Positions 16,031 through 42,555 of a DNA stretch of 46,935 nt are shown here, one piece after another. The position numbers and the translations under genes were made by a program. The notes beneath the pieces were generated by a model. The model was not told where the DNA came from. It made no database searches and saw nothing but the letters and a program-made list of their open reading frames with translations. Numbering within the stretch: position 1 is the first letter of the stretch; every line of letters begins with the position of its first letter. Source of the stretch: Bacteroidota bacterium (lineage in GTDB: Bacteria > Bacteroidota > Bacteroidia > Bacteroidales > JAIPAH01); NCBI GenBank assembly GCA_051747665.1, contig JBNJGK010000002.1, positions 2,267 through 49,201 on the forward strand, given 5' to 3'.

Positions 16031-16032
16031 AT

Positions 16033-17607: not shown

Positions 17608-17932
17608 TCTCTTAATCACAAATGTTTCGCATTTCTTTTATAATATTGAGTATTAATTTTTTAGCTATAGACGAGTTTTATAAATGGTTCTATATCAAGC
17701 TCTAAAATTTCATTATTCAAATTTTAAGCGCGAAACTTTCGTTAATCATATAATTCAGGTAAGAGTACTAATCAACTCTATTTTTTCCCATAATCACACC
17801 CCAGACATCAGCAGTCCCCAACCTACAAATTAAACTGAATATAAATAAGCTTTACCTAAACAAAATATTTGGGCTTTAGATGTGGAATTCATACATTTAT
17901 GCTATTATTTAAAACCAATTTATCTGATATCA

Positions 17933-18727
17933 ATGAAAAACGTGGTGTGGCATTTTCCAGAACATATTGAAAAAGTACCTGATATGCTGAAAAAGCATAA
18001 AGTGTTCCTGCATGGTGGCGGAACGCACCTTACAGGCAACAGACTGAATAACTATGCTCAACTTATCTCGCTGGATAAACTGGGACTTGATTTTATAAAA
18101 AAGGAAAAAGGGTTTTTTCATCTTGGAGCCCAGGCAACCTATCAAAGAGTTGTTGATGAATTAATCAACTACGATTCTGAGCATATCCTGGTGAAAGCGC
18201 TGAGCAAGGCAGCCACTTATCCGCTAAGAAATCGTATCACGCTCGGAGGCAGCCTCTTTTTAAGTCCGGGATGGTCAGACCTTATCGGTCCATTAGCCGC
18301 ACTGAATGCACAAGTGCAGCTTTTCGGTGAAAATCAGGGAACCTATCCCGTATCAGATTATATTCAGAAAAAAGAACTCAAAAAAAACAGCATTATTACA
18401 AAAATCGCTTTCCCCGATAAACCATATAAAAGCAGGTATTATCGTGAAACCATTACAGAAAATGATCATCCGTCTTTTACACTTACTATCCTGAAAGTTG
18501 AAAGCGATATCCGAATCGTTATCACCGGACATACCGGCCGTATCTATCGTGCAGTAAGCGTGGAAGAGGAAATCAGGCAAAATAACTTTCAACCAATAGA
18601 TCGGGAGAAAATCAATTTTCAAAAAGACATCCATTTTGCGCCTGTAAAAGGAATGACTCCCGGTTATATCAGGCATTTAGCCGAAACAGCTATTTTTAGA
18701 GAAACAAACGAAATCCTGAAAGCATAG
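17933..18727 (+). CDS. Molybdenum hydroxylase FAD-binding subunit, short YgfM-like form
   Basis: About 264 aa with FLHGGGTHL and NRITLGGSL. Size and position match E. coli YgfM-type subunits. ATG 17933 is preferred over the GTG 17882 extension. Confidence 0.8.
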   Translation: MKNVVWHFPEHIEKVPDMLKKHKVFLHGGGTHLTGNRLNNYAQLISLDKLGLDFIKKEKGFFHLGAQATYQRVVDELINYDSEHILVKALSKAATYPLRNRITLGGSLFLSPGWSDLIGPLAALNAQVQLFGENQGTYPVSDYIQKKELKKNSIITKIAFPDKPYKSRYYRETITENDHPSFTLTILKVESDIRIVITGHTGRIYRAVSVEEEIRQNNFQPIDREKINFQKDIHFAPVKGMTPGYIRHLAETAIFRETNEILKA

Positions 18728-18730
18728 ACG

Positions 18731-19210
18731 ATGAAAACAAAACTAAATATTAACGGGAAAACCAAACACCTTGAACACGCCGGCGGCGAAAAACTCCTTG
18801 ATACACTCAGGAATCATGGGTATACTGATGTAAAAAGAGGATGCGCTGAAGGAGAATGCGGAGCTTGCCTGATACTCCTTGACGGCAAGCCCGTAAACTC
18901 TTGCCGTGTTTTTACAGCCGCTGTACCTGAACATCAAATTACTACAGTAAAAGGGTTGGGAAGCATACAACAACCACATTTCATACAGGATGCTTTTGCT
19001 GAATCGGGAGCTGTACAATGCGGATTTTGCACACCTGCGCTTGTGCTTTCAACGTATGCACTGCTGCAGCAAAATCCTGAACCCTCAAACCGGGATATTC
19101 ACAAGGCGATGGACGGGATCTTATGCCGCTGCACTGGTTACATCAAAATCATAGATGCTGTAAAACTCGCTGCAGGAAAAATGAAACCGGAAAATACAGA
19201 AAATCAGTAA
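18731..19210 (+). CDS. (2Fe-2S)-binding small subunit of a molybdenum hydroxylase
   Basis: CAEGECGACLILLDGKPVNSC, then QCGFCTPA and CRCTGY. Confidence 0.92.
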   Translation: MKTKLNINGKTKHLEHAGGEKLLDTLRNHGYTDVKRGCAEGECGACLILLDGKPVNSCRVFTAAVPEHQITTVKGLGSIQQPHFIQDAFAESGAVQCGFCTPALVLSTYALLQQNPEPSNRDIHKAMDGILCRCTGYIKIIDAVKLAAGKMKPENTENQ

Positions 19211-19269
19211 TGTGATAAACTGAATTATATCGTCAGTATATTCAAAAACAGGTTTTTAATAATCAACAA

Positions 19270-21603
19270 ATGAATACTATGAGTCAATTTCAAAATATAG
19301 GAAAACCGGTAACAAAAACAGATGCTATCTCTCTGGCCACAGGCAGCGCTCTTTTTACAGAAGATTTTCCGTTAAAGGACGCGCTTTATGTGCGTATCCT
19401 GAGGAGCCCTTATGCTCATGCACGAATTTTGTCTATAGACACCTGCCCCGCAAAAGAAATGGAAGGTGTAGTGGATATTCTGACGCATCAGGATATTGAG
19501 AAAATATATTTTACCACGGCAGGTCAGGGTGCACCGGAACCTTCGCCGTATGACACATTGCTGTTTGACGATATTGTACGTTATGCCGGCGATTTCGTAG
19601 CTATGGTAGCAGCAGAAAGCGAAGAAATTGCTAACGAAGCGGTTTCTAAAATAAAAGTTCGCTATGAGCCTTTACCCGAAGTCTTTGATCCTGAAAAAGC
19701 TCTTGATGAGGGCGCTCCCATAATTCATGATAAAGAAGAGTACTTCCCCATCCCTGTTCCTTACAAACCGAAAGAAAACCTGGCGGCTGAAGTTGAGTTT
19801 TCTATAGGAAACACAACCAAAGGTTTCGAAGAAGCTGATACTGTAATAGAAGAGACATATCGAAGCGATTATGCCTCTCACGCCACCATCGAACCCCACA
19901 TCGCAGCCTCCTGGTTCGATGAAAACGGACGACTGGTTATAGCAACTGCCACGCAGGTACCTTTTCATGCCCGCCGCATTGTGGCTCGCGTGCTGAATTA
20001 CCCATTGAAGAAAATACGCGTTATCAAACCACGCATTGGCGGCGGATTTGGCGCTAAGCAAGAAGTTTTGCTGGAACCGTATGTTGCACTGTTTACGATT
20101 CGCAATAATCGTCCGGTACAACTAATCTATACACGTCGCGAAGAATTTCAGTCGGGAAGACAGCGACACCCAATGAGAGTAAGCCTGAAGATGGGCTTTA
20201 AAAGCAATGGCGAAATAACGTCTCTCGAAATGGATAACCTGATGAACACAGGCGCTTATGGAAGTCACGCGCTTACGGTATTATCCAACTCAGGTTCCAA
20301 ATGCCTGCCGCTGTTTAACAAAATAAATAATATCGCTTTCCGCGGAAGATCTGCCTATACCAACCTTCCGGTAGGAGGCGCTTATCGCGGATATGGAGCC
20401 ACCCAGGCATACTTTGCGCTGAACCAGCATTGGGACAGCATTGCCCGCCAAACCAACCAGGATCTGCCTGAATATTTTAAAAAGTGGCATATCCGTGAAG
20501 GAGAAACTTCCGAAGTTTTTAAAGCATTAGGAGAAGGAAAGGAAGGTGTAGAACAAATTATCAATTCCTGCAAGCTGGATGAATGCATAGACCGCGGGGC
20601 AGAAGCAATAGGCTGGTATCAAAAACGCAATAAAAAGCATGAACCCCGTCCCGGGTTTGTCAGAGGCGTGGGAATGGCAGTAGCCATGCAAGGCTCTGGA
20701 ATTCCTATGATTGATATGGGGGCTGCCTACATGAAAATGAATGAAGATGGCAGTTTTAACCTCGACATTGGCGCTACTGATATCGGAACCGGCTCTGATA
20801 CTATCCTGGCGCAAATCGCCGCTGAAGTGCTGCAAACTGATACGGATAAAATAATTGTGCTTTCTTCAGATACAGACCGCACTCCGTTCGATGTGGGCGC
20901 CTATGCTTCTTCAACAACATACGTTTCCGGTGGGGCTGTAGAAAAATGCGCACGGAAAATCAGTGAGCAAATAACTGAAGTAGCCGCCGATTTGCTTGGC
21001 GCAACACCTGAAAAGGTTATTCTCTCAGGAGGAAAAGCAAAAGACACTGCATCCGGAAAAACGGTTGATTTTGCAGAAATCGGAGCAGAAACGCTTTATG
21101 GAGGGCACCTGAAACAAATTCAGGCAGAGGCATCGCAATCTACGGAGCAGTCTCCCCCACCCTTCATCGCACAATTTGCCGAAGTGGAAGTGGATAAAGT
21201 CACCGGAAAAGTTCGTGTTGTTGAGTTTGTTTCTGCTGTGGATTGCGGTCTGGCGATAAACCCAAAATTGGCAGAAGGACAAATTGAAGGCGCTGCTGTC
21301 AACGGCATGACTTATGCTTTGTTTGAAAACTTCCGGTTTACAGCTAAAGGCCAGGTTACAAACGCTTCATTCTGGGATTATAAAATCTGGCGAAGCAATG
21401 ACATCCCAAAAATGAAAACCATTTTGGTAGATTCTTATGAGGAATCCGGACCGTACGGAGCTAAGTCGGCAGGCGAAATCGGTATCAACGGTCCTGCGCC
21501 GGCCATTGCTAATGCAATTTTTGATGCCGTAGGTATCCGAATGACGGAAATGCCTTTTACTTCAGAAAAAGTATACAAAAAGCTTCACAATCATGCAGAA
21601 TAA
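19270..21603 (+). CDS. Molybdopterin-binding large subunit, xanthine dehydrogenase family (XdhD/aldehyde-oxidoreductase-like signature)
   Basis: The N-terminal Ald_Xan_dh region has RILRSPYAHARI. Other motifs are IGGGFGAKQE, GGAYRGYGATQ and the C-terminal GAKSAGEIGINGPAPAIANAI. Confidence 0.92.
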   Translation: MNTMSQFQNIGKPVTKTDAISLATGSALFTEDFPLKDALYVRILRSPYAHARILSIDTCPAKEMEGVVDILTHQDIEKIYFTTAGQGAPEPSPYDTLLFDDIVRYAGDFVAMVAAESEEIANEAVSKIKVRYEPLPEVFDPEKALDEGAPIIHDKEEYFPIPVPYKPKENLAAEVEFSIGNTTKGFEEADTVIEETYRSDYASHATIEPHIAASWFDENGRLVIATATQVPFHARRIVARVLNYPLKKIRVIKPRIGGGFGAKQEVLLEPYVALFTIRNNRPVQLIYTRREEFQSGRQRHPMRVSLKMGFKSNGEITSLEMDNLMNTGAYGSHALTVLSNSGSKCLPLFNKINNIAFRGRSAYTNLPVGGAYRGYGATQAYFALNQHWDSIARQTNQDLPEYFKKWHIREGETSEVFKALGEGKEGVEQIINSCKLDECIDRGAEAIGWYQKRNKKHEPRPGFVRGVGMAVAMQGSGIPMIDMGAAYMKMNEDGSFNLDIGATDIGTGSDTILAQIAAEVLQTDTDKIIVLSSDTDRTPFDVGAYASSTTYVSGGAVEKCARKISEQITEVAADLLGATPEKVILSGGKAKDTASGKTVDFAEIGAETLYGGHLKQIQAEASQSTEQSPPPFIAQFAEVEVDKVTGKVRVVEFVSAVDCGLAINPKLAEGQIEGAAVNGMTYALFENFRFTAKGQVTNASFWDYKIWRSNDIPKMKTILVDSYEESGPYGAKSAGEIGINGPAPAIANAIFDAVGIRMTEMPFTSEKVYKKLHNHAE

Positions 21604-29719: not shown

Positions 29720-30901
29720 ATGAATTATTATTACAAATGCAGCGAGTGTGGTAAAACGTATCCGATAACACCGGACAGGATGCTGTGCGAAGACTGCAGC
29801 AGCAAGCAAAAATCCGGCCGTCCGCTCCGCGGCATCCTTGAGGTAGCAATGGAAGGTCAGCTCGCCGATTGCACCTCCGTTTATGCTGTTTTACCGATAG
29901 AAAAAAAGTGGTTTCCGCAGATTCCGGTTGGCAACACTCCGCTCTGGTCACCTAAAAAGCTGCAACAAAAGCACGGCTTTCCAAACCTGTTTATCAAGGA
30001 TGACACCCGGAATTTAACCGGTTCTTATAAAGACAGAGCCTCATGGCTGGTCGCCGCCTCTGCGCTTAAGTGGGGCATCAGGCATGTTACGGTTGCTTCT
30101 ACAGGAAACGCGGCCTCTTCAATGGCCGGCATCGGAGCTGCGGCAGGACTCAGGGTAACCATTTATGTGCCGGGTTCCATTCCAAAAGCTAAGCTTGTAC
30201 AGTCGCTACAGTACGGCGCTGAGGTGATTTCTGTAAACGGAAGCTATGACGACGCTTTCCGCATGGCAATGAAACCAGACTCATCAGAAAAAGTACTCAA
30301 CAGAAATACCGGCTATAACCCGCTTACGCTGGAAGGCAAAAAAACAGCTTCCTTTGAGCTATGCCACCAGATGACAAATACACCAGACTATATTTTTGTG
30401 CCTGCTGGCGATGCTGTCGTGCTTAGCGGCATGATTAAAGGGTTTAAAGACCTCCAAAAACTCGGCAAAATCGGCAGATTTCCAAAGTTCATCGCTGTGC
30501 AGGCCGAGGGAAGCAGCGCCCTGGCGAAAGCTATGGAACAAGGAGATTTTTCAGACCCAGTGAAATCAGAAACCATAGCTGATTCCATCCAGGTAGATGT
30601 TCCGGCATGTGGATATTATGCTTTGCGCGAATTGAAAGCGCACAGCGGCGACTGCATAACGGTTTCCGATAATGAAATCCGGCAAGCACAAATAGAATTA
30701 TCTTCAGAGGCGGGGCTTTTTGCAGAGCCCTCTGCGGCAGCTTCTTTGGCAGGCTTACTCAAGATGAAAGCAGATATTGAACCGGAGGCAAAAATCGTGT
30801 TGCTGGCTTCAGGAACGGGACTCAAAGACATCGACAACGCACAGCAGGCTGTGGAAAACGCAGGCAGAACCATAACACGAAAGGAGGTCTCGGATGATTG
30901 A
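29720..30901 (+). CDS. Threonine-synthase-like fold-type-II PLP enzyme with an N-terminal 4-Cys zinc ribbon
   Basis: CSECG...CEDC ribbon, VGNTPLW, PLP-lysine motif LTGSYKDRAS, ASTGNAASS, and a C-terminal LLASGTGLKD. It is collinear with short ThrC proteins but sits inside the purine operon. Confidence 0.8.
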   Translation: MNYYYKCSECGKTYPITPDRMLCEDCSSKQKSGRPLRGILEVAMEGQLADCTSVYAVLPIEKKWFPQIPVGNTPLWSPKKLQQKHGFPNLFIKDDTRNLTGSYKDRASWLVAASALKWGIRHVTVASTGNAASSMAGIGAAAGLRVTIYVPGSIPKAKLVQSLQYGAEVISVNGSYDDAFRMAMKPDSSEKVLNRNTGYNPLTLEGKKTASFELCHQMTNTPDYIFVPAGDAVVLSGMIKGFKDLQKLGKIGRFPKFIAVQAEGSSALAKAMEQGDFSDPVKSETIADSIQVDVPACGYYALRELKAHSGDCITVSDNEIRQAQIELSSEAGLFAEPSAAASLAGLLKMKADIEPEAKIVLLASGTGLKDIDNAQQAVENAGRTITRKEVSDD

Positions 30902-31460
30902 AGCCATAATTTTAGCAGCAGGGTATTCCTCGCGCACCAGCCGCTATAAAATGACTTTGCCTTTGGGCGAAAAAACCGTACTACAGCATACTGTAGAGTC
31001 GTTTTTAAAAGTTTGCAATAAAGTAATTGTGGTTTGCGGACATAACGCCCGGGATTGTAAAAAACTTTTTGCAAACCAAAAAGGAGTGATTGTTACCGTA
31101 AACCCGAATTTTTCCAAAGGCATGTTCAACTCTGTGCAGCACGGCGTTCGTCAGTTGCATTCGGATATATTTTTTGTGATTCCGGGCGATCAACCTATGG
31201 TTAAGCCCGAAACACTAACGAAGTTGCTTGCTGCCGATGGAGACATCATAAATCCGGCCTACCGGGGAAAAAAAGGACATCCGGTATTGTTCCGGGGCAA
31301 CAGCAAAAAAGGTATACTGGATATGCCGGAAAATGCGGTTTTGCGCGATTATATACACAGCCATCCATCCACGGTACTCGAAGTGGATGATGAGGGCGTC
31401 TTGCTGGATATCGATACCGATGAAGATTATGAAAACATGGCAACCCGTTTTGCTACATGA
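30894..31460 (+). CDS. mocA: Molybdenum cofactor cytidylyltransferase (MocA/YgfJ-like)
   Basis: AIILAAGYSSRTSRYKM nucleotide-binding loop, VIPGDQPMV and GHPVLF. It is 188 aa and overlaps both neighbouring genes. Confidence 0.75.
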   Translation: MIEAIILAAGYSSRTSRYKMTLPLGEKTVLQHTVESFLKVCNKVIVVCGHNARDCKKLFANQKGVIVTVNPNFSKGMFNSVQHGVRQLHSDIFFVIPGDQPMVKPETLTKLLAADGDIINPAYRGKKGHPVLFRGNSKKGILDMPENAVLRDYIHSHPSTVLEVDDEGVLLDIDTDEDYENMATRFAT

Positions 31461-33574
31461 TAAATAACAGGAAACAGTTTATGGAAAACAAAATCAGTAC
31501 TTCTATTCCCCGCTTTGACGCCAGTAAAAAACTATCCGGCGAAGCCGTTTACATCGGCGATATGGTTTTGGATGGAATGCTGCATGCACGCACCTTAAGA
31601 AGCGAAAAAGCCCATGCCCGCATCATCAGTATTGAACTTCCCGAACTGCCTGAAGGATATTTTGCCATCACAAAAGAAGATGTTCCTAGAGAAAACCATA
31701 TGCAAAGTGTTGTTTCAGACCACCCGCTTTTTGCTGATAAAGAGGTTTTTTACATCGGACAGCCTCTTCTTCTTATGATAGGTCCTGACAAGGAAAAGAC
31801 AGCCTCGCTGGCTTCGCAAGTAAAGGTCAGGTATGAAGATTTACCTTCCATTACAAACATGGAAGAAGCCATCCGGAAAAACAAAACGCACGTCAGCTAC
31901 CAATATGACAAAGGAAATCCTGAAGGAGCTTTTCGCGAAAGCAAAAACATTATCTCTGAAACATTTTATACCGGAAGACCTGACCAGTTATACCTTGAGA
32001 CAAATGGCGTTATAGCCAAGTGGGAAAACGAGCGCATGACGGTTTATGGTTCCATGCAATGTCCCTTTTTTGTAAAAAATGCTGTGGCTGAAGCTACAGG
32101 CCTGGCTCCGGATCAGATTCGCGTTATACAAACGGTTACCGGAGGTGCGTTTGGAGGTAAAGAGGAATACCCTTCATTGCTGGCTGCACAGGCGGCAATT
32201 GCTTCTCTGAAAACCGGCAAACCTGTCCGGTTGATCTTAGACCGGAAAGAGGACCTGGAAGCCAGCACAAAACGTCATCCTGCCAAGATGAAATACCGTG
32301 CGGCCATTAATGCGAAGCAAGAGATTACAGCCATAGACATTGACATTAGTTTTGATGGCGGCGCTTTTGCTACTATCTCTCCGGTAGTACTTCAAAGAGG
32401 CATGTTTACGGCTACGGGCGTGTATAATTTTCCTCATATCAGGGTTAAAGGTCGCGTAGTTGATACTCACAAAGTTCCTTCCGGCGCTTTTCGCGGTTTT
32501 GGCGCACCGCAGGTACTGTTTGCCATGGAACAAATGATGCTTCGTATTAGTAACAGATTAAACCAGAATACGCTGAATTTTAAGAAAAAGCACCTTATAA
32601 AAACAGGAGACACCACAGCCACCGGCGGCAAAATGTGGTCGGATATCAAAATCAATGAAGTGATAGAGAAAATTACGGGGATGTCTGACTACAACCACAA
32701 AAAAGCTAAGCACGGAAAAAACCGCGGCATTGGTATTTCGTTGTTTTTACACGGTTGTGGTTTCACCGGACGTGGCGAAGTGGACATCAGTGGTGAAGTC
32801 ATCCTGAAAAAGAAAAATGAAAATATCAGCATCTACACTTCCAATGTAGAGATGGGTCAGGGCGCCTCCACAACGCTAAGAAAAATTGTGGCCCAGAGCC
32901 TGCAAATCCCTGAAGCAAAAGTCAGCTTTGAGCCTCAGGATACCGACCGGGTACCAAATTCCGGGCCTACTGTAGCTTCCAGAACGGCTATGATTATCGG
33001 CGGACTGGTGAAAAAAGCATGTAATCAGCTTCTTGAAAAATGGCATTTGCCTGATGTTGAGGTCAAAGAAGTTTACCAGCATCCCGGATATGTAAACTGG
33101 GATAACAAAACATTTCGGGGCGATGCTTACCCCGTCTACTCATGGGGCGCTAATGTGGCTGAAGTAGAAGCCGATCCGGTTACATGCGAAATAGACGTAA
33201 AAAAATTATGGGGTGTTTATGATATTGGCGTAGCGCTGGATGAGGACATCATCCGCGGACAGATGCAGGGCGGCATGATCCAGGGACTGGGATATGCCCT
33301 GATGGAAAAAATGGAACACCTGCAAGGAAAATTGCAACAGTTGAACTTAACGGATTATACCATTCCCACAACAATGGATACACCAGAAATGGAATGCGAT
33401 TTTGTAGAAAATCCATACGAATTTGGACCTTTCGGTGCTAAATGTGCCGGAGAGCTGCCGCTGAATGGCATAGCTCCTGCTTTAGCTGAAGCAGTGGAGC
33501 AGGCGCTTGGCATCAAAGTAAGCCAAATTCCTTTGACTCCTGAATACTTAAAAGAAAGGCAACATGAAGATTGA
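31457..33574 (+). CDS. Molybdopterin-binding large subunit with xanthine-dehydrogenase-type active-site motifs
   Basis: TGGAFGGKEE, GAFRGFGAPQ and GAKCAGELPLNGIAPALAEAV. In bovine XOR the equivalent motifs GGGFGGKE, FRGFGGPQ and VGEPP carry Glu802, Arg880 and Glu1261. Confidence 0.9.
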   Translation: MINNRKQFMENKISTSIPRFDASKKLSGEAVYIGDMVLDGMLHARTLRSEKAHARIISIELPELPEGYFAITKEDVPRENHMQSVVSDHPLFADKEVFYIGQPLLLMIGPDKEKTASLASQVKVRYEDLPSITNMEEAIRKNKTHVSYQYDKGNPEGAFRESKNIISETFYTGRPDQLYLETNGVIAKWENERMTVYGSMQCPFFVKNAVAEATGLAPDQIRVIQTVTGGAFGGKEEYPSLLAAQAAIASLKTGKPVRLILDRKEDLEASTKRHPAKMKYRAAINAKQEITAIDIDISFDGGAFATISPVVLQRGMFTATGVYNFPHIRVKGRVVDTHKVPSGAFRGFGAPQVLFAMEQMMLRISNRLNQNTLNFKKKHLIKTGDTTATGGKMWSDIKINEVIEKITGMSDYNHKKAKHGKNRGIGISLFLHGCGFTGRGEVDISGEVILKKKNENISIYTSNVEMGQGASTTLRKIVAQSLQIPEAKVSFEPQDTDRVPNSGPTVASRTAMIIGGLVKKACNQLLEKWHLPDVEVKEVYQHPGYVNWDNKTFRGDAYPVYSWGANVAEVEADPVTCEIDVKKLWGVYDIGVALDEDIIRGQMQGGMIQGLGYALMEKMEHLQGKLQQLNLTDYTIPTTMDTPEMECDFVENPYEFGPFGAKCAGELPLNGIAPALAEAVEQALGIKVSQIPLTPEYLKERQHED

Positions 33575-34031
33575 ATTCAATTTAAACGGAAAAACTGAGG
33601 TGTTTGAAGGCCCGCCGGAGTCGCGCTTATTAGATGTGCTAAGGGATCACTTCGGGTTAAAAAGCCTGAAAGAAGGCTGCGGCGAAGGAGAATGTGGCGC
33701 CTGCACGGTGCTGCTTGATGGAAAAGCCGTGGCCTCATGTATTTTGCCTGCCGGAGCTGCTGCCGGCAGAAAGATAGAAACCCTGGAAGGCATTCGCAAC
33801 GGCAACAGCTACAACCTCATCAAGCAAGCATTCAGGGAGTCCGGCGCTGTACAATGCGGCTTTTGCACCCCCGGCATGGTCATGGCTGCCGAATCGCTGC
33901 TGCGCGAAAACCCAAACCCGGATAAAACAGACATCCGTCGCGCGCTGTCGGGAAACTTATGCCGCTGCACGGGATACAGCATGATATTAAACGGCGTGGA
34001 ACTAGCTGTAAAAAGACAGGAGGAAAAATGA
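33564..34031 (+). CDS. (2Fe-2S)-binding small subunit of the second molybdenum hydroxylase
   Basis: CGEGECGACTVLLDGKAVASC, QCGFCTPGM and CRCTGY. Confidence 0.92.
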   Translation: MKIEFNLNGKTEVFEGPPESRLLDVLRDHFGLKSLKEGCGEGECGACTVLLDGKAVASCILPAGAAAGRKIETLEGIRNGNSYNLIKQAFRESGAVQCGFCTPGMVMAAESLLRENPNPDKTDIRRALSGNLCRCTGYSMILNGVELAVKRQEEK

Positions 34032-34891
34032 AAACAGCCTATCATCCCGAATCTCTGTCTGAAGCTCTCGAAATAAGAGCAAACGAAAGAGTTAAGCCTA
34101 TAGCCGGAGGCACTGACCTGATGGTGCAGCATCGCAGAGAAGGAGGCATTGCACCAGGATTTAGCGAACCGCTGCTGTTTCTCTATCAGTTGCCGGAATT
34201 AAAAAAAATTACCGCAGATAAAAATATACTAACCATCGGATCAGGCGTTCTCTTAAGCCAACTGACTAATGATACACAAGTGCCGAACCTGCTCAGAGAA
34301 ACAGCGCAACAGATGGCAGCGGTTACCACACGAAACGTTGCCACAATCGGAGGAAACGTTTGCAATGCATCACCTGCTGCTGATATTTTGCCCTGTTTGT
34401 ATCTATTAAATGCAGAACTGGTTTTACAAAGCCTTCGCAATTACAGAATCCTTCCAATACACGAGTTTATAACCGGTCCGGGTACAACGCTGCTTCGGGA
34501 AGATGAACTTCTGGTTGAAATCCGGTTTCCTTTAGATAATTTCGAGGTGGAGAAATACAGAAAAATAGGTACACGCAAAGCAATGGCTTTGTCTAAAATA
34601 TCCTTTGCCGCTGGCGCAAACTTTAAGGATAGCAAGCTAAGCGATATCAGGATGGCGCTGGGAGCTGTGGCTCCGACGGTAGTCCGTTCCTTATCCGCCG
34701 AAAGGCTACTCATCAACAAAACTAAACAGGAAATTGAGAAACAGCTTCCCGAAGTAATGAAAGCGTATGAAAAAGCCATAAACCCAATAGACGACGCGCG
34801 CAGCAATAAAAAATACCGAAAGCAAGTCAGCCTGGAATTAATACAGGATTTTATTGAAAATCAGATTCTAAACCATAAAAAGATATCATAA
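34028..34891 (+). CDS. FAD-binding subunit of the second molybdenum hydroxylase (CoxM/XdhB-like)
   Basis: PIAGGTDLMV and ATIGGNVCNASPAAD. Start is set at ATG 34028 (ATGA overlap with the previous stop) rather than the track's 33959. Confidence 0.88.
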   Translation: MKTAYHPESLSEALEIRANERVKPIAGGTDLMVQHRREGGIAPGFSEPLLFLYQLPELKKITADKNILTIGSGVLLSQLTNDTQVPNLLRETAQQMAAVTTRNVATIGGNVCNASPAADILPCLYLLNAELVLQSLRNYRILPIHEFITGPGTTLLREDELLVEIRFPLDNFEVEKYRKIGTRKAMALSKISFAAGANFKDSKLSDIRMALGAVAPTVVRSLSAERLLINKTKQEIEKQLPEVMKAYEKAINPIDDARSNKKYRKQVSLELIQDFIENQILNHKKIS

Positions 34892-34892
34892 G

Positions 34893-35693
34893 ATGGTTTC
34901 AAAACCGTCAATAAAAGACACGAAAACACAAACAATGAAAATCCTTGAAAAACTTGTTCAGAATGTTCCGGAGATTCCGGTAAATGAGGTGATTGTCGGC
35001 GTATTTACTACGCTGGTAAGAGCAGGTAACTTATATGGAGTTTCCAGTACATTGCGGGGCGAAACACCACATCAAGCCCCCGGGCGGGACAAACCCCTGT
35101 CAGAAATGAACCTACGGGAATTAGCGGAACTGATTCATTCTGAAGAACTCTTACAAGCCTCTGTTGGTCTGGCCGCAATTAATGCGGCAAATGCAACGGA
35201 TAAACACTTCACATCTGTAAAAGCTCAGGAAATCATTCGCCAAAAAGGAAAAGGTAAAGTCGTTGCCGCAGTCGGCCATTTCCCGTTTCTGGAAAAACTC
35301 ACTGAACCTTCGCGGTTGATGATTTTTGAAAAACAGCCTTTGAATGGGGATTTTCATGAAAAGGATATCCGTCGACTATTGCCTGAGGCTGATGTCGTGG
35401 CTATAACAGGCACCACGTTTATCAATCATACTTTTGGAGAGGTGATGAAACATATCAGGCCCGACGCATTCAAAATCGTTTTAGGCCCCTCTACCCCACT
35501 GTCACCTGTTCTTTTCAACTTTGGCATTGATGCGGTTTGCGGAACCCGGGTAACAGATTTTGAGGTGATGAGGCAATGCGTGCTGGAGGCAACGCCTGTA
35601 AGGCAAACTCAGGGAAAAGACTTCGTTTGCCGGATGCGTAAAGATTATGAAAATCAGCAAAAATCAGTTATAGAAATTTCAGAAAGCAACTAA
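34893..35693 (+). CDS. DUF4213/DUF364 ('putative heavy-metal chelation') domain protein
   Basis: The N-terminal VIVGVFTTLVRAGNLYGVSSTL is DUF4213-like. The Rossmann-like part has VVAAVGHFPF...LLPEADVVAITGTTFINHT...IVLGPSTPLSPVLF..GIDAVCGTRV, which is DUF364-like. Assignment is by recall. Confidence 0.72.
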   Translation: MVSKPSIKDTKTQTMKILEKLVQNVPEIPVNEVIVGVFTTLVRAGNLYGVSSTLRGETPHQAPGRDKPLSEMNLRELAELIHSEELLQASVGLAAINAANATDKHFTSVKAQEIIRQKGKGKVVAAVGHFPFLEKLTEPSRLMIFEKQPLNGDFHEKDIRRLLPEADVVAITGTTFINHTFGEVMKHIRPDAFKIVLGPSTPLSPVLFNFGIDAVCGTRVTDFEVMRQCVLEATPVRQTQGKDFVCRMRKDYENQQKSVIEISESN

Positions 35694-35696
35694 AAT

Positions 35697-36506
35697 ATGA
35701 GGGATATTTATAAAAATATTTGGGAAATCACACAAAGCGGTAAACCGGGCGTACTCGTAACGGTCGTTGAAAAAGAAGGTGAAGGCCCTGCCCTGGCCGG
35801 AAATAAAATGCTGGTGTATGAGGATGGCAGCACGGCGGGAACCGTTGGCGGAGGCAACCTGGAATTTTTGGCTGCAAAAAAAGCCAGGAAAATCCTTCAA
35901 ACAGGAAAAAATGCGCTTGAAAGCTTTAATTTGTCTGATGACAAAACAGAAGGCACACCAACCGGCATGGCCTGTGGGGGAAAAGCCACGCTCTTCTTTG
36001 AGTTTCTGGGTCAAACCAGCCGCGTATACCTCTTTGGGGCCGGACATATCGGCAAAGCCCTTTTTGAAATCCTTACAAAAATGGAAGTGGCGGTAACGTT
36101 AGTGGATGACCGCGCTGAGATGATCGAGGAAATAAAAACTCCCGGAGAAAAGCATCATGCTGGTTTTGTGGAATTCATTGAAGAAACGGATTTTCATGCC
36201 ACTCCGCTGTTTGTTTTGGCAACGTATAAGCATCAGCACGACAGCTACATCCTGAATAAAATTTACGAAAAACAAATCCAGACTCCCTACATTGGCATTA
36301 TCGCCTCCAAAAAAACGCGTAAAATGCTGATTCAAAGCCTGCAAGAGACAAATGGTGAGGATACGGACCTGACGCCGGTTTACTCTCCCGCGGGCTTGGA
36401 CATCGGCGGAACCGACCATCCGTGGGAAATTGCCCTGTCAGTTGCAGCGGAAATACAAACCCTTCGATACAACAAAAATGCAAATCATTTAAAAGACAAA
36501 AAATAA
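35697..36506 (+). CDS. XdhC/CoxF-family molybdenum hydroxylase maturation factor
   Basis: The N-terminal VLVTVVEKEGEGPALAGNKMLV..DGSTAGTVGGGNLE matches the XdhC_CoxI domain. Rossmann motif VYLFGAGHIGKAL. Confidence 0.85.
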   Translation: MRDIYKNIWEITQSGKPGVLVTVVEKEGEGPALAGNKMLVYEDGSTAGTVGGGNLEFLAAKKARKILQTGKNALESFNLSDDKTEGTPTGMACGGKATLFFEFLGQTSRVYLFGAGHIGKALFEILTKMEVAVTLVDDRAEMIEEIKTPGEKHHAGFVEFIEETDFHATPLFVLATYKHQHDSYILNKIYEKQIQTPYIGIIASKKTRKMLIQSLQETNGEDTDLTPVYSPAGLDIGGTDHPWEIALSVAAEIQTLRYNKNANHLKDKK

Positions 36507-36516
36507 CATACAATTC

Positions 36517-37965
36517 ATGATAGACCTGACAATCAACGAAAATCAAAGAAAGCAAAATGCTGAAATCTGCCACGAGCGCAATATCATTGTGCCCACTTTC
36601 GCAGAAATGAAAAACCCGGATCTGATTCCGGATCATATCAAAAAGGAATTAAATAATGTTGGCTTGTGGGACATTGACCCGCGAAACCTGTTCCGCATAA
36701 CCTGGAAAAATGAGCCTGCACATCATGGCGGAGGCTATTCAGGAGTGAACTATATGGAGCTGCCTCCGGAACTCACCGGAGTGAATGCCCGTATCATTGC
36801 GCTTGTAGGAAAATGGTTTCCAACAGGCGCCCACAAAGTAGGCGCTACGTTTGGCTGCCTGGCGCCACGGCTGATAACAGGTCAGTTTAACCCGAAAAAA
36901 CACAAAGCCGTATGGCCCTCTACAGGAAATTATTGCCGGGGCGGCGCTTACGATGCCGCGCTGCTGGCATGTGAATCCGTTGCCATATTACCTGAAGGAA
37001 TGTCAAAAGAGCGTTTCGAGTGGCTGGCCAATGTAGCCGGAGAAGTCATAGCCACACCCGGCTGCGAAAGCAATGTAAAAGAAATCTTTGACAAATGCTG
37101 GGAATTAAAAAAGACTCGCAGTGACGTAATGATTTTCAATCAGTTTGATGAATTCGGAAACCACTTATGGCATTATGACGTGACCGGAAATGCGATGCTG
37201 GAAGTGCTGCAAAAAGAATTAGGAGATGACCACCACTATTCCGGTGTAGTATTAACTTCTGGATCCTCAGGAACAATGGGTTGCGGCGACTTTCTGAAGG
37301 AAAAATATCCGGCATCAAAAATAGCCGTGGGTGAAGCGCTACAGTGCCCTACCCTACTGCAAAACGGTTTTGGCGGACATCGCATCGAAGGCATCGGCGA
37401 TAAACACGTTCCGTGGATTCATAACGTTCGAAACACAGATATGGTGGTTGCTGTTGACGATGATTCTACTATGCGCACCGTTCGCTTGTTTAACGAAGCG
37501 CAAGGAAAAGAATACCTCGCCAGGCAAGGGGTTCATCAAAAACTAATTGATAACCTGGATTTATTGGGTATTTCCTCTGTTGGCAACCTGCTTTCAGCTA
37601 TCAAATATGCCAAGTATTATGAATTGACGGAAAAGGATGTTGTGATGACGGTCTTTACCGATTCAATGGAGCTGTATGATTCTAGAATGCAGGAGATGGA
37701 AAAGGAGCACGGCCCTTACAATACGATAGATGCCGCTAAGGATTTTGATCACCTTCAAAACCTGACCATCGATCATACGCTGGAGCTGACGCATTATGAG
37801 AAGAAACGCATCCACAACCTGAAATACTACACCTGGATAGAGCAGCAGGGAAGACAACTCGAAGAGCTGAACCGGCAATGGTACGACCATTATGAATACT
37901 GGGACGAAATCCACCGCCTGGTTCCGAAAATTGACCGGCTAATAAAGGAATTCAATGCATTGTAA
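36517..37965 (+). CDS. Long (482 aa) fold-type-II PLP-dependent enzyme with a helical C-terminal extension
   Basis: Candidate PLP lysine in FPTGAHKVGATFG, STGNYCRGGAY, and the glycine loop TSGSSGTMG. The last ~130 aa are a charged helical tail. No closer family could be recognised. Confidence 0.7.
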   Translation: MIDLTINENQRKQNAEICHERNIIVPTFAEMKNPDLIPDHIKKELNNVGLWDIDPRNLFRITWKNEPAHHGGGYSGVNYMELPPELTGVNARIIALVGKWFPTGAHKVGATFGCLAPRLITGQFNPKKHKAVWPSTGNYCRGGAYDAALLACESVAILPEGMSKERFEWLANVAGEVIATPGCESNVKEIFDKCWELKKTRSDVMIFNQFDEFGNHLWHYDVTGNAMLEVLQKELGDDHHYSGVVLTSGSSGTMGCGDFLKEKYPASKIAVGEALQCPTLLQNGFGGHRIEGIGDKHVPWIHNVRNTDMVVAVDDDSTMRTVRLFNEAQGKEYLARQGVHQKLIDNLDLLGISSVGNLLSAIKYAKYYELTEKDVVMTVFTDSMELYDSRMQEMEKEHGPYNTIDAAKDFDHLQNLTIDHTLELTHYEKKRIHNLKYYTWIEQQGRQLEELNRQWYDHYEYWDEIHRLVPKIDRLIKEFNAL

Positions 37966-38010: not shown

Positions 38011-39429
38011 ATGAATCAATCCATACTTATAAAAAACCCAATGCTGTGTGCCAGAATGGATGGCCAACCCGGAAGCAGTAACCTGGCTAATCCATTCTCA
38101 GGTGGGCACGTTTATATTGAAAACGGTGTAATACAGTCAGCAGGACCGCAACCATACAACGGGGATGCAGAGTTAGAAATTGATGCCAGCCGGATGGTTG
38201 TTATTCCCGGGCTCATCAATACGCATCACCATTTTTTTCAAACGCTTACGCGGAATATTTTTAATGTGCAAAACGAAGGCCTTTTTCAGTGGCTCATCAC
38301 ACATTACGAGATATGGCGTGAGATTTCGGAAGAGTCTGTGTATACCGCTGCTCAACTTGCTATGACAGAGCTGATGAAAAGCGGCTGCACTACCACTTCA
38401 GATCATCACTACCTGTTTCCCTCGGCAGCGTCAAATCAGCTTATTGATGCTGAAATAAGAGCCGCTCAGGATTTAGGGATGCGTTTTCAGCCTACCCGCG
38501 GCTCTATGTCGCTCGGAAAGTCAGAAGGTGGATTGCCTCCTGACGACGTGGTGCAAACAGAAGAAAAAATCAAAGCCGATACACTTAGGCTGATTCAGGA
38601 GTATCATGATGACAAACCCGGCGCTATGACCCGCATAGCATTGGGACCATGCTCTCCTTTTTCCGTAACACCTGAGCTGATGAAACAAACGGTGGAGATG
38701 GGTGAGGAATACAATTTACAGATTCATACTCACCTGGCTGAAACACTGGACGAAGAGGCTTTTTGCCTTAAAAACTTTGGCCAAAGACCTTTCGCTTACC
38801 TGAAATCGCTCAACTGGATCCGCAAGAACGCCTGGTTTGCGCATTCCATCCACCTGAATGACGAAGAAATTGCAGAAGCCGGAGCAGCAGGAATTGGCAT
38901 CACGCATTGCCCTTCGTCGAATATGCGCTTAGGCTCCGGCATTGCACGCATCAAAGAAATGCTTCAGGCTGGAGTAAAGGTAAGCCTCGGTGTGGATGGC
39001 TCAGCTTCCAACGACTCCTCCAATATGCTTATGGAACTTCGCATGGCAATGATGCTTTCACGGCTGCGGGAGCAGGATAAGTGGCTAAGTGCAGAAGAAG
39101 CGCTTTACATGGGAACCCGCGGAGGAGCGGAAGCGCTAAACCGTCCGGAGCTTGGGCAAATACGAAAAGGCATGCAAGCTGACCTGGCTTTGATGAACAT
39201 GGATAAAGCCGAATATTCCGGTGCGCTGCACGATCCGCTGGCAGCCTTGATTTTTTCTGTTGGCATGCACCCTTTTGATTGCGTGATTACCAACGGGCGA
39301 CTTACCGTGCATGAAGGAAAAGTGCAGTCTGTTCATGAGCCGGCGCTTATTCGCAGGCACCAGAAAACCTCAGAAAAGATCATCGCAAAAGCAAAACAAA
39401 AAACCAGGCAGGATTATTCCAGAAAATAA
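38011..39429 (+). CDS. Amidohydrolase, 8-oxoguanine deaminase / TRZ-ATZ (COG0402)-like
   Basis: PGLINTHHHFFQTLTR, SGCTTTSDHHYLFP, IHTHLAET, HSIHL and SLGVDGSASND. By recall these are very close to Pseudomonas 8-oxoguanine deaminase motifs. Confidence 0.8.
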   Translation: MNQSILIKNPMLCARMDGQPGSSNLANPFSGGHVYIENGVIQSAGPQPYNGDAELEIDASRMVVIPGLINTHHHFFQTLTRNIFNVQNEGLFQWLITHYEIWREISEESVYTAAQLAMTELMKSGCTTTSDHHYLFPSAASNQLIDAEIRAAQDLGMRFQPTRGSMSLGKSEGGLPPDDVVQTEEKIKADTLRLIQEYHDDKPGAMTRIALGPCSPFSVTPELMKQTVEMGEEYNLQIHTHLAETLDEEAFCLKNFGQRPFAYLKSLNWIRKNAWFAHSIHLNDEEIAEAGAAGIGITHCPSSNMRLGSGIARIKEMLQAGVKVSLGVDGSASNDSSNMLMELRMAMMLSRLREQDKWLSAEEALYMGTRGGAEALNRPELGQIRKGMQADLALMNMDKAEYSGALHDPLAALIFSVGMHPFDCVITNGRLTVHEGKVQSVHEPALIRRHQKTSEKIIAKAKQKTRQDYSRK

Positions 39430-40346: not shown

Positions 40347-40742
40347 ATGTTTATGGACGCACATGCATACCTGACAAAGGCTCAAACCTATTATGAAAAA
40401 GTCGGCGAAGCAAATTTCCGGAAACTTATTAATGACTTTTACAATAACCTGAGCGAGGATCCGCTGTTGCGGGATATGTATCCTAAAAACCTGGAACCCG
40501 CCAAAGAAAGGTTATATATGTTTGTAGTGCAATATTTCGGCGGGCCGCAGGATTACGCAGAAAAGCGTGGCCATCCGAGGTTACGCATGCGCCATGCCCG
40601 TTTTCCGGTTACCGAGGAAGCACGGCAGCATTGGATGAGTCACATGAACAAAGCTCTGGAGAATAATCCGATGGATGAGGAAGCCCGGGAGTTCTTGCGA
40701 GGTTACTTTGCTTATACGGCTGAATTCCTGAAAAACAGATAG
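40347..40742 (+). CDS. Group II truncated haemoglobin (GlbO/YjbI-like)
   Basis: FVVQYFGGPQDYAEKRGHPRLRMRHARFPVT parallels B. subtilis YjbI GGPSLYSEEKGHPMLRARHLPFPIT. Length 131 aa. Confidence 0.8.
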   Translation: MFMDAHAYLTKAQTYYEKVGEANFRKLINDFYNNLSEDPLLRDMYPKNLEPAKERLYMFVVQYFGGPQDYAEKRGHPRLRMRHARFPVTEEARQHWMSHMNKALENNPMDEEAREFLRGYFAYTAEFLKNR

Positions 40743-40807
40743 TTAACAACCATGACGGCATAAAAGAGTTGCATAGCTGTTTGTTTTGTTGTATTTTCGT
40801 GAAAATA

Positions 40808-41239
40808 ATGACAGCCGCGGAAATACTCAAAAGACACCATTTAAATAAAACACATTGTCGTGTTTTGGTTCTCGAACAGCTTATGCATGACAGGAAAGCT
40901 TTCTCGCATAAGGAGCTTGACAACATGCTTCGGCCCCTCTGTAATCGCAGTACGCTTTACAGGATTCTAAATACCTTTGAGCAAAAAAGGCTTATCATAA
41001 AAGTTCCTATGGAAGAAGCGGATAAGTTCTTTTTCAATTCCGCCGCAGCGGAAAGTAAAAACAGAAATAAGTACCAAACCATTTTCTATTGTACCTCTTG
41101 CAGCGATATTTCACTGCTTCGGACTTTCTCAGACACAGAGCTGGAAATTCCGGAAAATTATGAAACAGCAGAACCGCATATTTTACTTCGCGGCACATGC
41201 AACAAATGCAATCAGAAAAAATATAACAAAATCATATGA
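40808..41239 (+). CDS. Fur-family transcriptional regulator
   Basis: Winged-helix region LNKTHCRVLVLEQL...STLYRILNTFEQKRLI and C-terminal Cys pairs CTSC and CNKC. ATG 40808 is preferred over the track's 40769. Confidence 0.7.
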   Translation: MTAAEILKRHHLNKTHCRVLVLEQLMHDRKAFSHKELDNMLRPLCNRSTLYRILNTFEQKRLIIKVPMEEADKFFFNSAAAESKNRNKYQTIFYCTSCSDISLLRTFSDTELEIPENYETAEPHILLRGTCNKCNQKKYNKII

Positions 41240-41601
41240 TAGACACGAAGACCGTACTCTATTTACCCAACTGTGATACCAGCCAGCGTGTGATTAAAGA
41301 AGCCGGTATAGGAAAAGAGTTCACGTTTCGCGATTTAAAAAAGGAACCGCTGAACGAGGAAGAAATCGATGCCCTGGCAGTGCTTGCCGGAAGCTATGAA
41401 GCCCTGTTCAGCCGTAACGCAAAAAAATACCGCGAGCGGAAATTGCAACACGAATATCTAAATGAAAAAGACTACCGCGAATTGCTTCTGGAACATTATA
41501 CGTTCCTGAAACGTCCTGTTATTGTAATTGATGACCAGATTTTTATCGGAGGCAATGAAAAGGTAGTCAACCAACTTATCTATTACCTTGATAACAATTA
41601 A
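41236..41601 (+). CDS. ArsC/Spx/YffB-family thioredoxin-fold protein
   Basis: LYLPNCDTSQRVIKEAG near the N-terminus and FLKRPVIV near the C-terminus. ATGA start/stop overlap with the Fur gene. Confidence 0.7.
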   Translation: MIDTKTVLYLPNCDTSQRVIKEAGIGKEFTFRDLKKEPLNEEEIDALAVLAGSYEALFSRNAKKYRERKLQHEYLNEKDYRELLLEHYTFLKRPVIVIDDQIFIGGNEKVVNQLIYYLDNN

Positions 41602-41610
41602 GGTAGCTTA

Positions 41611-42555
41611 CTAAATTCCGGCTCCATTTGAAAACTTTCCCGGACGCGGACGCTGCTGCGAGACTTTAGAGCCCGGCGGCAAGTTGTGGGTAACCCAGAT
41701 ATTACCTCCAATTACAGAACCTTTACCTACCCTTACAGGGCCAAGCACAGTAGAGTTGGAATAGATAATTACATTGTCTTCCACATCAGGATGACGTTTT
41801 ATACCCTTAATGGGATTTCCGTTTTCATCAGAGGGAAAGCTGCGCGCACCCAAGGTTACACCCTGATAGATTTTAACATGGCTGCCGATAGTGCAGGTCT
41901 CTCCTATCACCACTCCTGTTCCGTGGTCGATAGTGAAAGACTCTCCGATTTTTGCTGCCGGGTGAATGTCAATCCCGGTTTCTGAGTGCGCCATTTCAGT
42001 GATGATACGAGGTATCAGAGGCACATCCAGATTATAAAGGGCATGGGCTATACGGTAATTGGTCACCGCCCTTATTGTCGGATAACTAAAAATCACCTCT
42101 CCATAACTTTTGGCTGCGGGGTCTCCGTCAAAAGTGGCTTTCACATCGCTTGAAAGTTTCTGTCTTATATCAGGCAACTGGTTTAAAAAAGCCGTCGTAA
42201 TCTCAGGAGCCTCGCGGGAACACTTATCACAATCCTGCCTGTTTACCGTCCTGCATTCATAGCATATTCCTCTCTGTATCTGCACACTCAACAGCCTGTT
42301 GATGATATCCAGATTGGCGCCGATATAATAACCTATCGTGCCGGAGCGGAGCGCTGAATTTCCAAAAAATCCCGGGAAAAGCACTTCACGTAGCCGGTCT
42401 ACAATCCGGCTTAGCATTTCCGTAGATGGCATCACATGCTCATGCTCCGGCATATAAACCATCTTGTTTGAGTCAGGACGTGATAATTCCTGAATAATAC
42501 CTTCAAAATCTTCTCTTTCTATATCTTGTACTTTGTTATTCATTTCTTTTTTCAT
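41611..42555 (-). CDS. cysE: Serine O-acetyltransferase (long form)
   Basis: Hexapeptide-repeat region IDIHPAAKIGESFTIDHGTGVVIGETCTIGSHVKIYQGVTLG. It lies immediately downstream of cysK with no intergenic gap. Confidence 0.88.
   Translation of the reverse strand: MKKEMNNKVQDIEREDFEGIIQELSRPDSNKMVYMPEHEHVMPSTEMLSRIVDRLREVLFPGFFGNSALRSGTIGYYIGANLDIINRLLSVQIQRGICYECRTVNRQDCDKCSREAPEITTAFLNQLPDIRQKLSSDVKATFDGDPAAKSYGEVIFSYPTIRAVTNYRIAHALYNLDVPLIPRIITEMAHSETGIDIHPAAKIGESFTIDHGTGVVIGETCTIGSHVKIYQGVTLGARSFPSDENGNPIKGIKRHPDVEDNVIIYSNSTVLGPVRVGKGSVIGGNIWVTHNLPPGSKVSQQRPRPGKFSNGAGI

Follow-up and report, generated by a model that had tools for sequence, protein, structure and literature searches.

We found a conserved pair of genes, encoding a DUF4213/DUF364 protein and a short XdhC-family protein, in a stretch of 46,935 nucleotides (nt) from a Bacteroidota bacterium (assembly GCA_051747665.1, contig JBNJGK010000002.1, positions 2,267 to 49,201), which is the window referred to throughout. 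The window belongs to a contig of a 3.0-Mb metagenome-assembled genome (MAG) that is 81% complete, and near-identical and related contigs carry a Bacteroidales label and stem from lake and sediment samples. Our best explanation, which as a whole we give a slightly better than even chance of being right, is that the open reading frame (ORF) at 34893-35693 encodes a cytoplasmic two-domain DUF4213/DUF364 protein, and that this protein and the short XdhC form a fixed two-gene module giving the cytidine dinucleotide (MCD) form of the molybdenum cofactor (Moco) to the xanthine dehydrogenase (XDH)-family hydroxylase or hydroxylases of the same operon, as deduced from gene context.

Loading of the cofactor into XDH-family enzymes requires a chaperone of their own (XdhC, PaoD or YqeB). 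Proteins of the XdhC family bind and protect Moco, support its sulfuration and carry out its insertion, and the cytidine dinucleotide is the product of MocA; to date, the known accessory sets consist of XdhC alone, or of YqeB and YqeC for selenium-dependent enzymes. In the mechanism that we propose, the MocA of the operon would make the MCD form of Moco, the DUF364 protein would act before XdhC, binding or processing a cofactor species that bears a nucleotide or is of pterin type and passing it on, either as a carrier or as a processing enzyme, and XdhC would protect the cofactor and insert it into the apo-hydroxylase. The cofactor species handled may come from outside rather than from de novo synthesis. 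The pair appears as a third conserved accessory arrangement, situated in the form that the anaerobic purine (2,8-dioxopurine-type) pathway takes in environmental bacteria, and DUF364, a family of several thousand proteins without an assigned function, gains a concrete and testable partner and pathway. It is a new arrangement within the known accessory sets for Moco maturation, not a new category. The pair consists of:

34893..35693, + strand: DUF4213/DUF364 protein, 266 aa, identified by Pfam, by AlphaFold2 (AF2) and Foldseek, and by 1346 homologues
35697..36506, + strand: XdhC-family Moco chaperone, short (269 aa), with Pfam XdhC_CoxI (74.3 bits) and XdhC_C (98.5 bits), both above cut-off

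The evidence that carries this explanation is the persistence of the pair across phyla. Five of five DUF364 homologues from long metagenome contigs (56-44% identity) have XdhC encoded directly after them. When one genome per GTDB species was scanned, 80 loci were obtained, in which ORFs were called and searched with the window proteins, and DUF364 is followed by XdhC in 21 of the 22 closest of these. In a maximum-likelihood tree, the XdhC-linked DUF364 proteins form one clade of 26 rows (support 100/99), whose members belong to Bacteroidota, Fidelibacterota (Marinisomatota), Cloacimonadota and WOR-3/Hydrothermota. The surroundings of the pair vary. The gene order in Bacteroidales is FAD subunit, DUF364, XdhC, and most non-Bacteroidales relatives have a gene for a 206-aa membrane protein before DUF364 and one for a THEP1-like P-loop NTPase after XdhC. 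Two loci (L007/L008:7314-7981) carry an insertion of a MazE/PIN toxin-antitoxin pair within the hydroxylase operon, where it separates the membrane protein gene from DUF364. The Cloacimonadota have the order MocA-DUF364-XdhC, with hydroxylase genes on the other strand or absent, and at five loci (L010, L019, L028, L029 and L031) the DUF364-XdhC pair is kept although no hydroxylase genes were seen in the retrieved flanks. One apparent truncation of DUF364, in a near-identical MAG (locus L027), proved to be a run of N and not a deletion.

Outside this clade, DUF364 occurs beside molybdenum-related genes in two further lineages. A separate clade in Chloroflexia has genes for a PadR regulator, a FecCD-type ABC importer and a MoCF_biosynth-domain protein, followed by DUF364 and a long XdhC, and in another separate clade, from Anaerolineaceae, DUF364 adjoins a 969-aa fused FeS/Mo XdhD-like enzyme. 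The remaining sampled DUF364 genes lie in ORP-type metal-cluster contexts, with DUF134 or PadR upstream and DUF5320, ParA/Mrp, TrmO_N or Nitro_FeMo-Co downstream. Because the pair persists through rearrangements in four phyla and there are two independent re-occurrences, we regard this as strong context evidence for a functional link of DUF364 to XdhC and the molybdenum cofactor. A preliminary description of the window, made from the sequence alone, had placed DUF364 in the slot of a cofactor-accessory gene. The context agrees with that placement, since XdhC comes immediately after DUF364 in 26/26 clade members from at least four phyla, and trios are present in Cloacimonadota and Chloroflexia.

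The arrangement in the window itself is compact. The FAD subunit gene ends at 34891, and the sequence TAA-G-ATG at 34889-34895 places its stop codon 1 nt before the DUF364 ORF; at the other end, TAA-AAT-ATG at 35691-35699 leaves 3 nt between the DUF364 stop and the XdhC start. Both spacings had been given in the preliminary description, and coordinates and junction sequence agree with them, though the DUF364 start is probably further downstream: the homologues are 235-256 aa long and their alignment begins at M15 of the ORF, so the true start is probably M15 at 34935, giving a gap of 43 nt to the FAD subunit stop instead of 1 nt.

Transcripts support expression of these genes. Near-identical contigs in four metatranscriptome assemblies from salt lakes cover the genes for the Mo, FeS and FAD subunits, DUF364, XdhC and the pyridoxal phosphate (PLP) protein. 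One RNA contig, covering 34741-35070 with one mismatch, crosses the junction between the FAD subunit stop and the DUF364 start, and two cross the XdhC/PLP junction. Transcription of the operon in situ is thus supported, with carry-over of DNA possible.

The family assignment, also made previously, is confirmed by Pfam and by structure prediction. DUF4213 (PF13938) matches residues 19-99 (E 3.4e-14, 53.3 bits against a cut-off of 23.5) and DUF364 (PF04016) matches residues 112-241 (E 1.5e-31, 109.4 bits against a cut-off of 23), in this N-to-C order and both above their gathering scores. An AF2 model computed from 34 homologues has a pLDDT of 90.8, and Foldseek matches it to 3L5O (E 2e-22, TM 0.79-0.81, 31% identity) and to 3NPG (TM 0.75), with no significant match besides these two. 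A profile search with the protein reaches 3L5O at 5.6e-37. The two-domain fold of 3L5O, enolase-N-like plus Rossmann-like, is thus present in the model, and is common to Dhaf4260 of Desulfitobacterium hafniense (3L5O) and PH1506 (3NPG). The genomic contexts of the two known structures differ from that in the window, since they feature metal transporters and stress regulators instead of XdhC and Mo hydroxylases (PMC2954201).

Conservation within this fold suggests a nucleotide-type ligand. Residues conserved at 90% or more both in the XdhC-linked clade and in the other clades include S83, N97, G128-H129-F130-P131-F132, E146, D167, T172 and N178. By motif position, the cleft residues G128, H129, E146, D167, T172 and N178 match G129, H130, E148, T174 and D180 of Dhaf4260, with which the protein shares the Gly-His loop, the Glu ending strand 2 and the Thr/Asn of the following helices. 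Dhaf4260 has been described as having a glycine loop, an acidic residue after Rossmann strand 2 of the kind that usually binds ribose hydroxyls, and polar residues in a deep interdomain pocket (PMC2954201). A Rossmann-type nucleotide (adenosyl-type) cleft is conserved in the DUF364 protein, and because the cleft residues common to the clades correspond to these features of Dhaf4260, the ligand probably carries a ribose or an adenosyl-type moiety and is similar across clades. A guess at the ligand of the DUF364 family, ‘pterin or flavin derivative’, has already been published. The five positions that set the XdhC-linked clade apart (L41, G125, F145, I159 and P235) are hydrophobic or structural.

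An adenosyl-type cleft would also suit an enzyme that uses S-adenosylmethionine (SAM), and the preliminary description's statement that DUF364 is known solely from a structural-genomics structure is outdated in this respect. In 2026 the DUF364 enzyme Orf5, the 4-methylazetidinecarboxylate synthase of the bonnevillamide cluster of Streptomyces, was shown to cyclise (4''R)-4''-methyl-SAM to cis-4-methylazetidinecarboxylate (cis-MeAZE) with release of methylthioadenosine (MTA), and its residues Tyr61 and Glu204 were assigned catalytic or recognition roles (PMC12930334). As a member of the same Pfam family, Orf5 shows that the family cleft can bind an adenosyl-sulfonium compound (PMC12930334), and its chemistry agrees with an adenosyl-binding cleft, though its context is unrelated. 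The DUF364 protein of the window might thus be a SAM-dependent enzyme like this first characterised member, namely a lyase/cyclase or an aminocarboxypropyl-type transferase and not a Moco carrier. It might make or alter a small molecule, such as a chelator derived from SAM, or it might modify the cofactor or the carrier of the cofactor. We consider this unlikely. In its favour, the protein keeps hallmarks resembling those of class-I methyltransferases (the Gly loop G128-H129, E146 ending strand 2, and D167), and DUF364 genes in sister clades are followed by genes for TrmO_N, which has a SAM-binding fold, and for radical SAM proteins. On the other hand, Orf5 partners a B12-radical-SAM methyltransferase in a non-ribosomal peptide cluster, and these partners, which define its context, are lacking here, as no gene for a cobalamin-dependent radical SAM C-methyltransferase (BnvC-like) or for a non-ribosomal peptide synthetase was found in the window. 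In addition, the structural-genomics (JCSG) authors report that the GGSGG SAM loop is missing and describe a narrower and longer pocket than those of methyltransferases (PMC2954201), and SAM chemistry leaves the strict pairing with a Moco chaperone unexplained.

Several observations weigh against a DUF364-XdhC module for Moco delivery. The adjacency could go back to a single ancestral operon disseminated by transfer, and the 26 cases therefore do not count as 26 separate events. No fusion of DUF364 to XdhC was found among the best 120 matches of a concatenated query, which included only XdhC-MocA fusions, and no Moco riboswitch was found in the window or in 18 related loci. RNA coverage is sparse, and no RNA contig spans the DUF364/XdhC junction at 35693-35697. 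An operon in Aminicenantes has MocA, the membrane protein, XdhC, the NTPase and the hydroxylase but lacks DUF364, and DUF364 is therefore not universally needed by such XdhC proteins. Within the phylum, a Mo subunit is present in 70 of 401 genomes and a strong DUF364 match in 2, so that most genomes bearing XDH-family enzymes lack DUF364; since DUF364 is nearly absent from these genomes, co-occurrence statistics within the phylum are uninformative. The idea that DUF364 is a divergent XdhC paralogue was rejected, as there is no XdhC structure among the Foldseek matches. Finally, the sole characterised DUF364 enzyme uses a SAM derivative and not a pterin (PMC12930334).

The XdhC partner also has characterised relatives. 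XdhC of Rhodobacter capsulatus and PaoD of Escherichia coli have, like the protein in the window, both XdhC domains, and act with MocA and an XDH-family enzyme. However, these two proteins function without a DUF364 partner, and the XdhC of the window, besides being short, does not reach the NCBIfam equivalog cut-offs (TIGR02964, an XDH accessory XdhC, 141.7 against 161.6; NF045664, an aldehyde oxidoreductase (AOR) maturation factor, 167.6 against 350). Because it scores under both of these cut-offs, the protein at 35697-36506 is, judged by profile scores, a distinct XdhC subfamily.

The differences from known accessory sets are clearest in comparison with selenium-dependent enzymes. The YqeB/YqeC/MocA accessory set of selenium-dependent molybdenum hydroxylases was reportedly described by Haft and Self in 2008, and the E. 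coli ygeW-xdhD region is said to be an example. The window shares with such systems a purine operon (YgfK, SsnA, YgeY, and hydantoinase-like and carbamoyltransferase-like proteins), MocA and an XdhC-domain protein, but YqeB and YqeC are absent, and DUF364 and the short XdhC (plus the THEP1-like NTPase in relatives) fill their slot. Neither YqeB nor YqeC was found in this genome as assembled (81% complete), and neither exceeded the cut-off in any of 25 genomes, namely this one and 24 others with the DUF364-XdhC pair; phmmer with E. coli YqeC gave no match in any locus. In cultured gut bacteria with a homologous purine cluster, by contrast, YqeBC and SelD are present in every strain (10.1101/2025.04.24.650524). 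The preliminary description had noted that YqeC and SelD are missing from the window and that the accessory set departs from the usual one, and both points hold. The genome-wide search proposed there gave a divided answer, as yqeB and yqeC are indeed absent but SelD is present on another contig.

This SelD is part of a 731-aa NifS-like/SelD fusion whose gene overlaps one for a SelU-like rhodanese (C39:52-3274). The N-terminal domain of the fusion is a NifS-like cysteine desulfurase/selenocysteine lyase, and a fusion length of about 730 aa recurs in 9 related genomes. The arrangement, to judge from these genes, already explains SelD here as a selenouridine trait.

According to an earlier proposal, the labile sulfido or selenido ligand would be handled by DUF364, which would take the place of YqeC in a hydroxylase system dependent on selenium. 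The absence of YqeB and YqeC here and in 24/24 related genomes, the presence of SelD in this genome, and the homology of the operon to a selenium-dependent 2,8-dioxopurine/purine cluster that elsewhere always has YqeBC and SelD (10.1101/2025.04.24.650524) would fit such a role. We nevertheless find it extremely improbable. There is no conserved Cys in the XdhC-linked clade, where the highest Cys frequency at any alignment column is 46%; at position 188, Cys is 98% conserved in DUF364 proteins outside this clade, but the protein in the window has Ile188 and the clade has no Cys. Furthermore, SelD is present in 13 of the 24 related genomes and missing from 11 that have the module, and the fusion beside the SelU-like gene already accounts for the SelD found here. 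As for YqeC, the DUF364 protein has no similarity to it, no match of any kind in NCBIfam and no P-loop (the motif GxxxxGK[ST] was not found in its sequence), and 15 relatives have a separate P-loop NTPase after XdhC. DUF364 thus appears to be neither a cysteine-based sulfur or selenium carrier nor a YqeC equivalent, and neither part of the earlier proposal is supported. The THEP1-like NTPase is the more natural analogue of YqeC. It has no counterpart in cis in the window, and a 28%-identical homologue is encoded elsewhere in the genome.

The source of the cofactor raises a further question, since this genome appears to lack the genes for its synthesis. A tblastn search of the whole genome with E. 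coli MoaA, MoaB, MoaC, MoaD, MoaE, MoeA, MogA, ModA and MobA found nothing except MocA. The only Bacteroidales member of the clade with the pathway has a MoeA-MoaA-MoaC-MOSC/MoCF operon (genome G402), and with this operon as query only weak generic radical-SAM matches were found in our genome. MoaC and MoeA_N are present in the same 2 of 22 clade genomes and absent from the other 20, including this one; they are found in 3/3 Chloroflexota genomes, and the reference genomes used as controls gave the expected picture, 11 of 14 being positive. MoaE (PF02391) was dropped as a third marker, as it was found in 0/25 genomes, among them five (two FCB, three Chloroflexota) in which MoaC and MoeA are present. 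Either molybdopterin synthase is divergent or replaced in these genomes, or the search reached its limit of sensitivity.

Two points count against reading these absences as real: they rest on MAGs of unstated completeness, and some may be limits of sensitivity, as MoaE gave no match even in the five genomes positive for MoaC and MoeA. GTDB representatives are, however, at least about half complete, several clade genomes measure 3.6-4.4 Mb, and one clade genome is another MAG from almost the same species as the window (97% nucleotide identity), so the chance loss of MoaC and MoeA from 20 of 22 genomes is very unlikely.

Since MoaC and MoeA are absent from these 20 genomes, the module may serve an acquired cofactor. 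We put forward, as a tentative idea that is on balance rather unlikely, that the DUF364-XdhC pair and MocA are a salvage kit, carried by organisms that have lost de novo molybdopterin synthesis but keep XDH-family hydroxylases. DUF364 would capture or re-process environmental Moco species, for instance by stripping or exchanging the nucleotide, after which MocA would cytidylylate the cofactor species and XdhC would insert it. The carriers would be sediment and lake lineages of Bacteroidales, Marinisomatota, Cloacimonadota and WOR-3. In the textbook view, Moco is too labile to be shared, and nematodes are the known exception. If the absence of MoaC and MoeA is real, these bacteria would use a cofactor that they cannot make, the textbook view would need revision for microbial communities, and purine/urate degradation in sediments would depend on cofactor cross-feeding. 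A salvage kit, if true, would be the first bacterial Moco salvage route described, and such a lifestyle, unlike the module itself, would be new in kind.

The missing MoeA could also be taken to mean that DUF364 handles the metal, by taking molybdate, tungstate or a thio-species in the cytoplasm and promoting its insertion into XdhC-bound molybdopterin as a substitute or helper of MoeA. The family is associated with importers and regulators for Mo, W and Fe, and its STRING context includes Mo/W/V transporters (PMC2954201). In Methanococcus maripaludis S2, a DUF364 gene (MMP_RS02675) lies in the modABC operon and is cofit with nifH, and the fitness data tie this likewise Mo-related operon to a Mo-dependent process (10.1101/2024.03.05.583561). 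That context is one of molybdate uptake for nitrogenase, with polar effects not excluded, whereas the partner here is a Moco chaperone and there is no transporter. The searched literature that mentions DUF364 yielded no link to XdhC or Mo hydroxylases; the link of the family to Mo uptake genes is already published. The ORP-type metal-cluster operons of the sister clades, with ParA/Mrp, Nitro_FeMo-Co, DUF134, FUR, ZIP and CobW, point in the same direction, as does a cleft rich in Ser, Thr, Asn and His, like oxyanion sites. Yet MoaC is absent from the same 20 clade genomes as MoeA_N, so there would be no self-made pterin to metallate, a ModA-type binding protein was not found in this genome, and the conserved acidic residue of the Rossmann-like domain suggests a ligand that carries a ribose. 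We therefore rate a metal-handling role as quite unlikely, and prefer a DUF364 protein that handles the nucleotide-bearing or pterin-type cofactor.

Two other candidates for Mo-related functions in this genome were rejected. Matches resembling ModB and ModC, on contig C86, belong to an iron-type ABC system and not to ModABC. An FdhF-like match on contig C95 is a GltD/NuoG-like fusion that has no Molydop_binding domain and is probably not a Moco enzyme; the gene (L111:4049-7525, minus strand) encodes a fusion of at least 1158 aa with GltD-like (Fer4_20 and Pyr_redox_2), Nqo3-type ferredoxin and Molybdopterin-oxidoreductase domains. This genome has no clear Moco clients besides the two hydroxylases of the operon, whose genes, together with the others near the module, are:

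17882..21603, + strand: first hydroxylase set (FAD, 2Fe-2S and XdhA/XdhD-like Mo subunits), with NCBIfam matches; second possible client
30894..31460, + strand: MocA-type molybdenum cofactor cytidylyltransferase, which opens the second hydroxylase block; Pfam NTP_transf_3, 5.9e-32
31457..33574, + strand: Mo-binding subunit of an XDH-family hydroxylase, 705 aa; Pfam Ald_Xan_dh_C, MoCoBD_1 and MoCoBD_2; presumed client
33564..34031, + strand: 2Fe-2S subunit; Pfam Fer2 and Fer2_2
33959..34891, + strand: FAD-binding subunit; Pfam FAD_binding_5 and CO_deh_flav_C
36517..37965, + strand: PLP protein of fold-type II, cysteine-synthase-like, 482 aa, with N- and C-terminal extensions; Pfam PALP, 4.2e-13
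38011..39429, + strand: 8-oxoguanine deaminase-type amidohydrolase, catabolic and not cofactor-related; NCBIfam NF006055, 590 bits against 532

These genes belong to a same-strand block of about 21.5 kb (17882-39429) with two heterotrimeric XDH-family hydroxylases in mirrored subunit order. Between the hydroxylase sets lie, in order, genes for a hydantoinase/allantoinase-like protein, SsnA, YgfK, YgeY, a carbamoyltransferase, a PLP enzyme and MocA. Going by its predicted genes, the block is an environmental, Bacteroidales version of the anaerobic purine/urate (2,8-dioxopurine-type) cluster, whose enzymes in E. coli and Clostridium sporogenes have been assigned to the 2,8-dioxopurine pathway (10.1101/2025.04.24.650524). 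The genome has one DUF364, one XdhC, one MocA and two XDH-family Mo subunits, all within this operon. MocA scores below the NCBIfam cut-offs (152 bits for TIGR03310 and 174 bits for the DVU_1551 family), and its position is conserved in relatives. In 400 other genomes of the phylum, the 705-aa Mo subunit lacks a close orthologue; the best match there is partial, with 42% identity. The listed start of the FAD subunit at 33959 overlaps the 2Fe-2S gene, and translation probably begins only beyond the 2Fe-2S stop.

The catabolic surroundings offer another possibility, in which DUF364 is a purine-pathway enzyme acting on a ring-opened or nucleotide-like intermediate and stands beside XdhC merely by block inheritance. 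Indeed, nearly all relatives have the PLP protein and the amidohydrolase behind XdhC (or the NTPase), including those without nearby hydroxylase genes, so that DUF364, XdhC, the NTPase where present, the PLP protein and the amidohydrolase travel as a block, of which the amidohydrolase is the last conserved gene. The membrane protein and NTPase also occur as a pair inside a purine-catabolic operon without Mo genes. However, MocA-DUF364-XdhC stands alone in Cloacimonadota locus L031, in Chloroflexia the partners of DUF364 are XdhC and a MoCF_biosynth protein, located behind an importer and without purine genes, and conservation of the cleft extends to clades lacking a purine context, which together make a catabolic role decidedly improbable. 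The 482-aa PLP protein may lie outside the cofactor module.

The membrane protein found before DUF364 in relatives is absent from this window and genome. It belongs to a family of about 206 aa with six to seven helices, which has no Pfam match and is named ‘hypothetical’ in databases (L007:6629-7249, L010:7352-7990 and 14 other loci; also L112:7001-7648 and L113:7001-7630). The invariant residues of this family are W18, E22, H30, Y47, K73, N89-P90, E97 and E200. Its profile matches no PDB sequence, and its best full-length fold match is the ECF S-component 5EDL (TM 0.60, E 0.45, not significant). The protein is paired with the THEP1-like NTPase both in the Aminicenantes MocA-XdhC-hydroxylase operon and in the purine operon that lacks Mo genes, and because of the latter it may be a substrate transporter rather than an S-component for Moco uptake.

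The operon is flanked by genes of other kinds. Directly upstream of the first hydroxylase set, at 15107-17607, are genes for a DUF362 protein and a 524-aa polyferredoxin (NapH/NapF/NapG-like), which are possibly the electron-transfer partners of the first hydroxylase. Past the operon, 40347-41601 contains a truncated-globin-like gene, a weak FUR-like regulator and an ArsC-family gene, and on the opposite strand, at 41611-43479, lie serine-acetyltransferase-like and cysteine-synthase genes.

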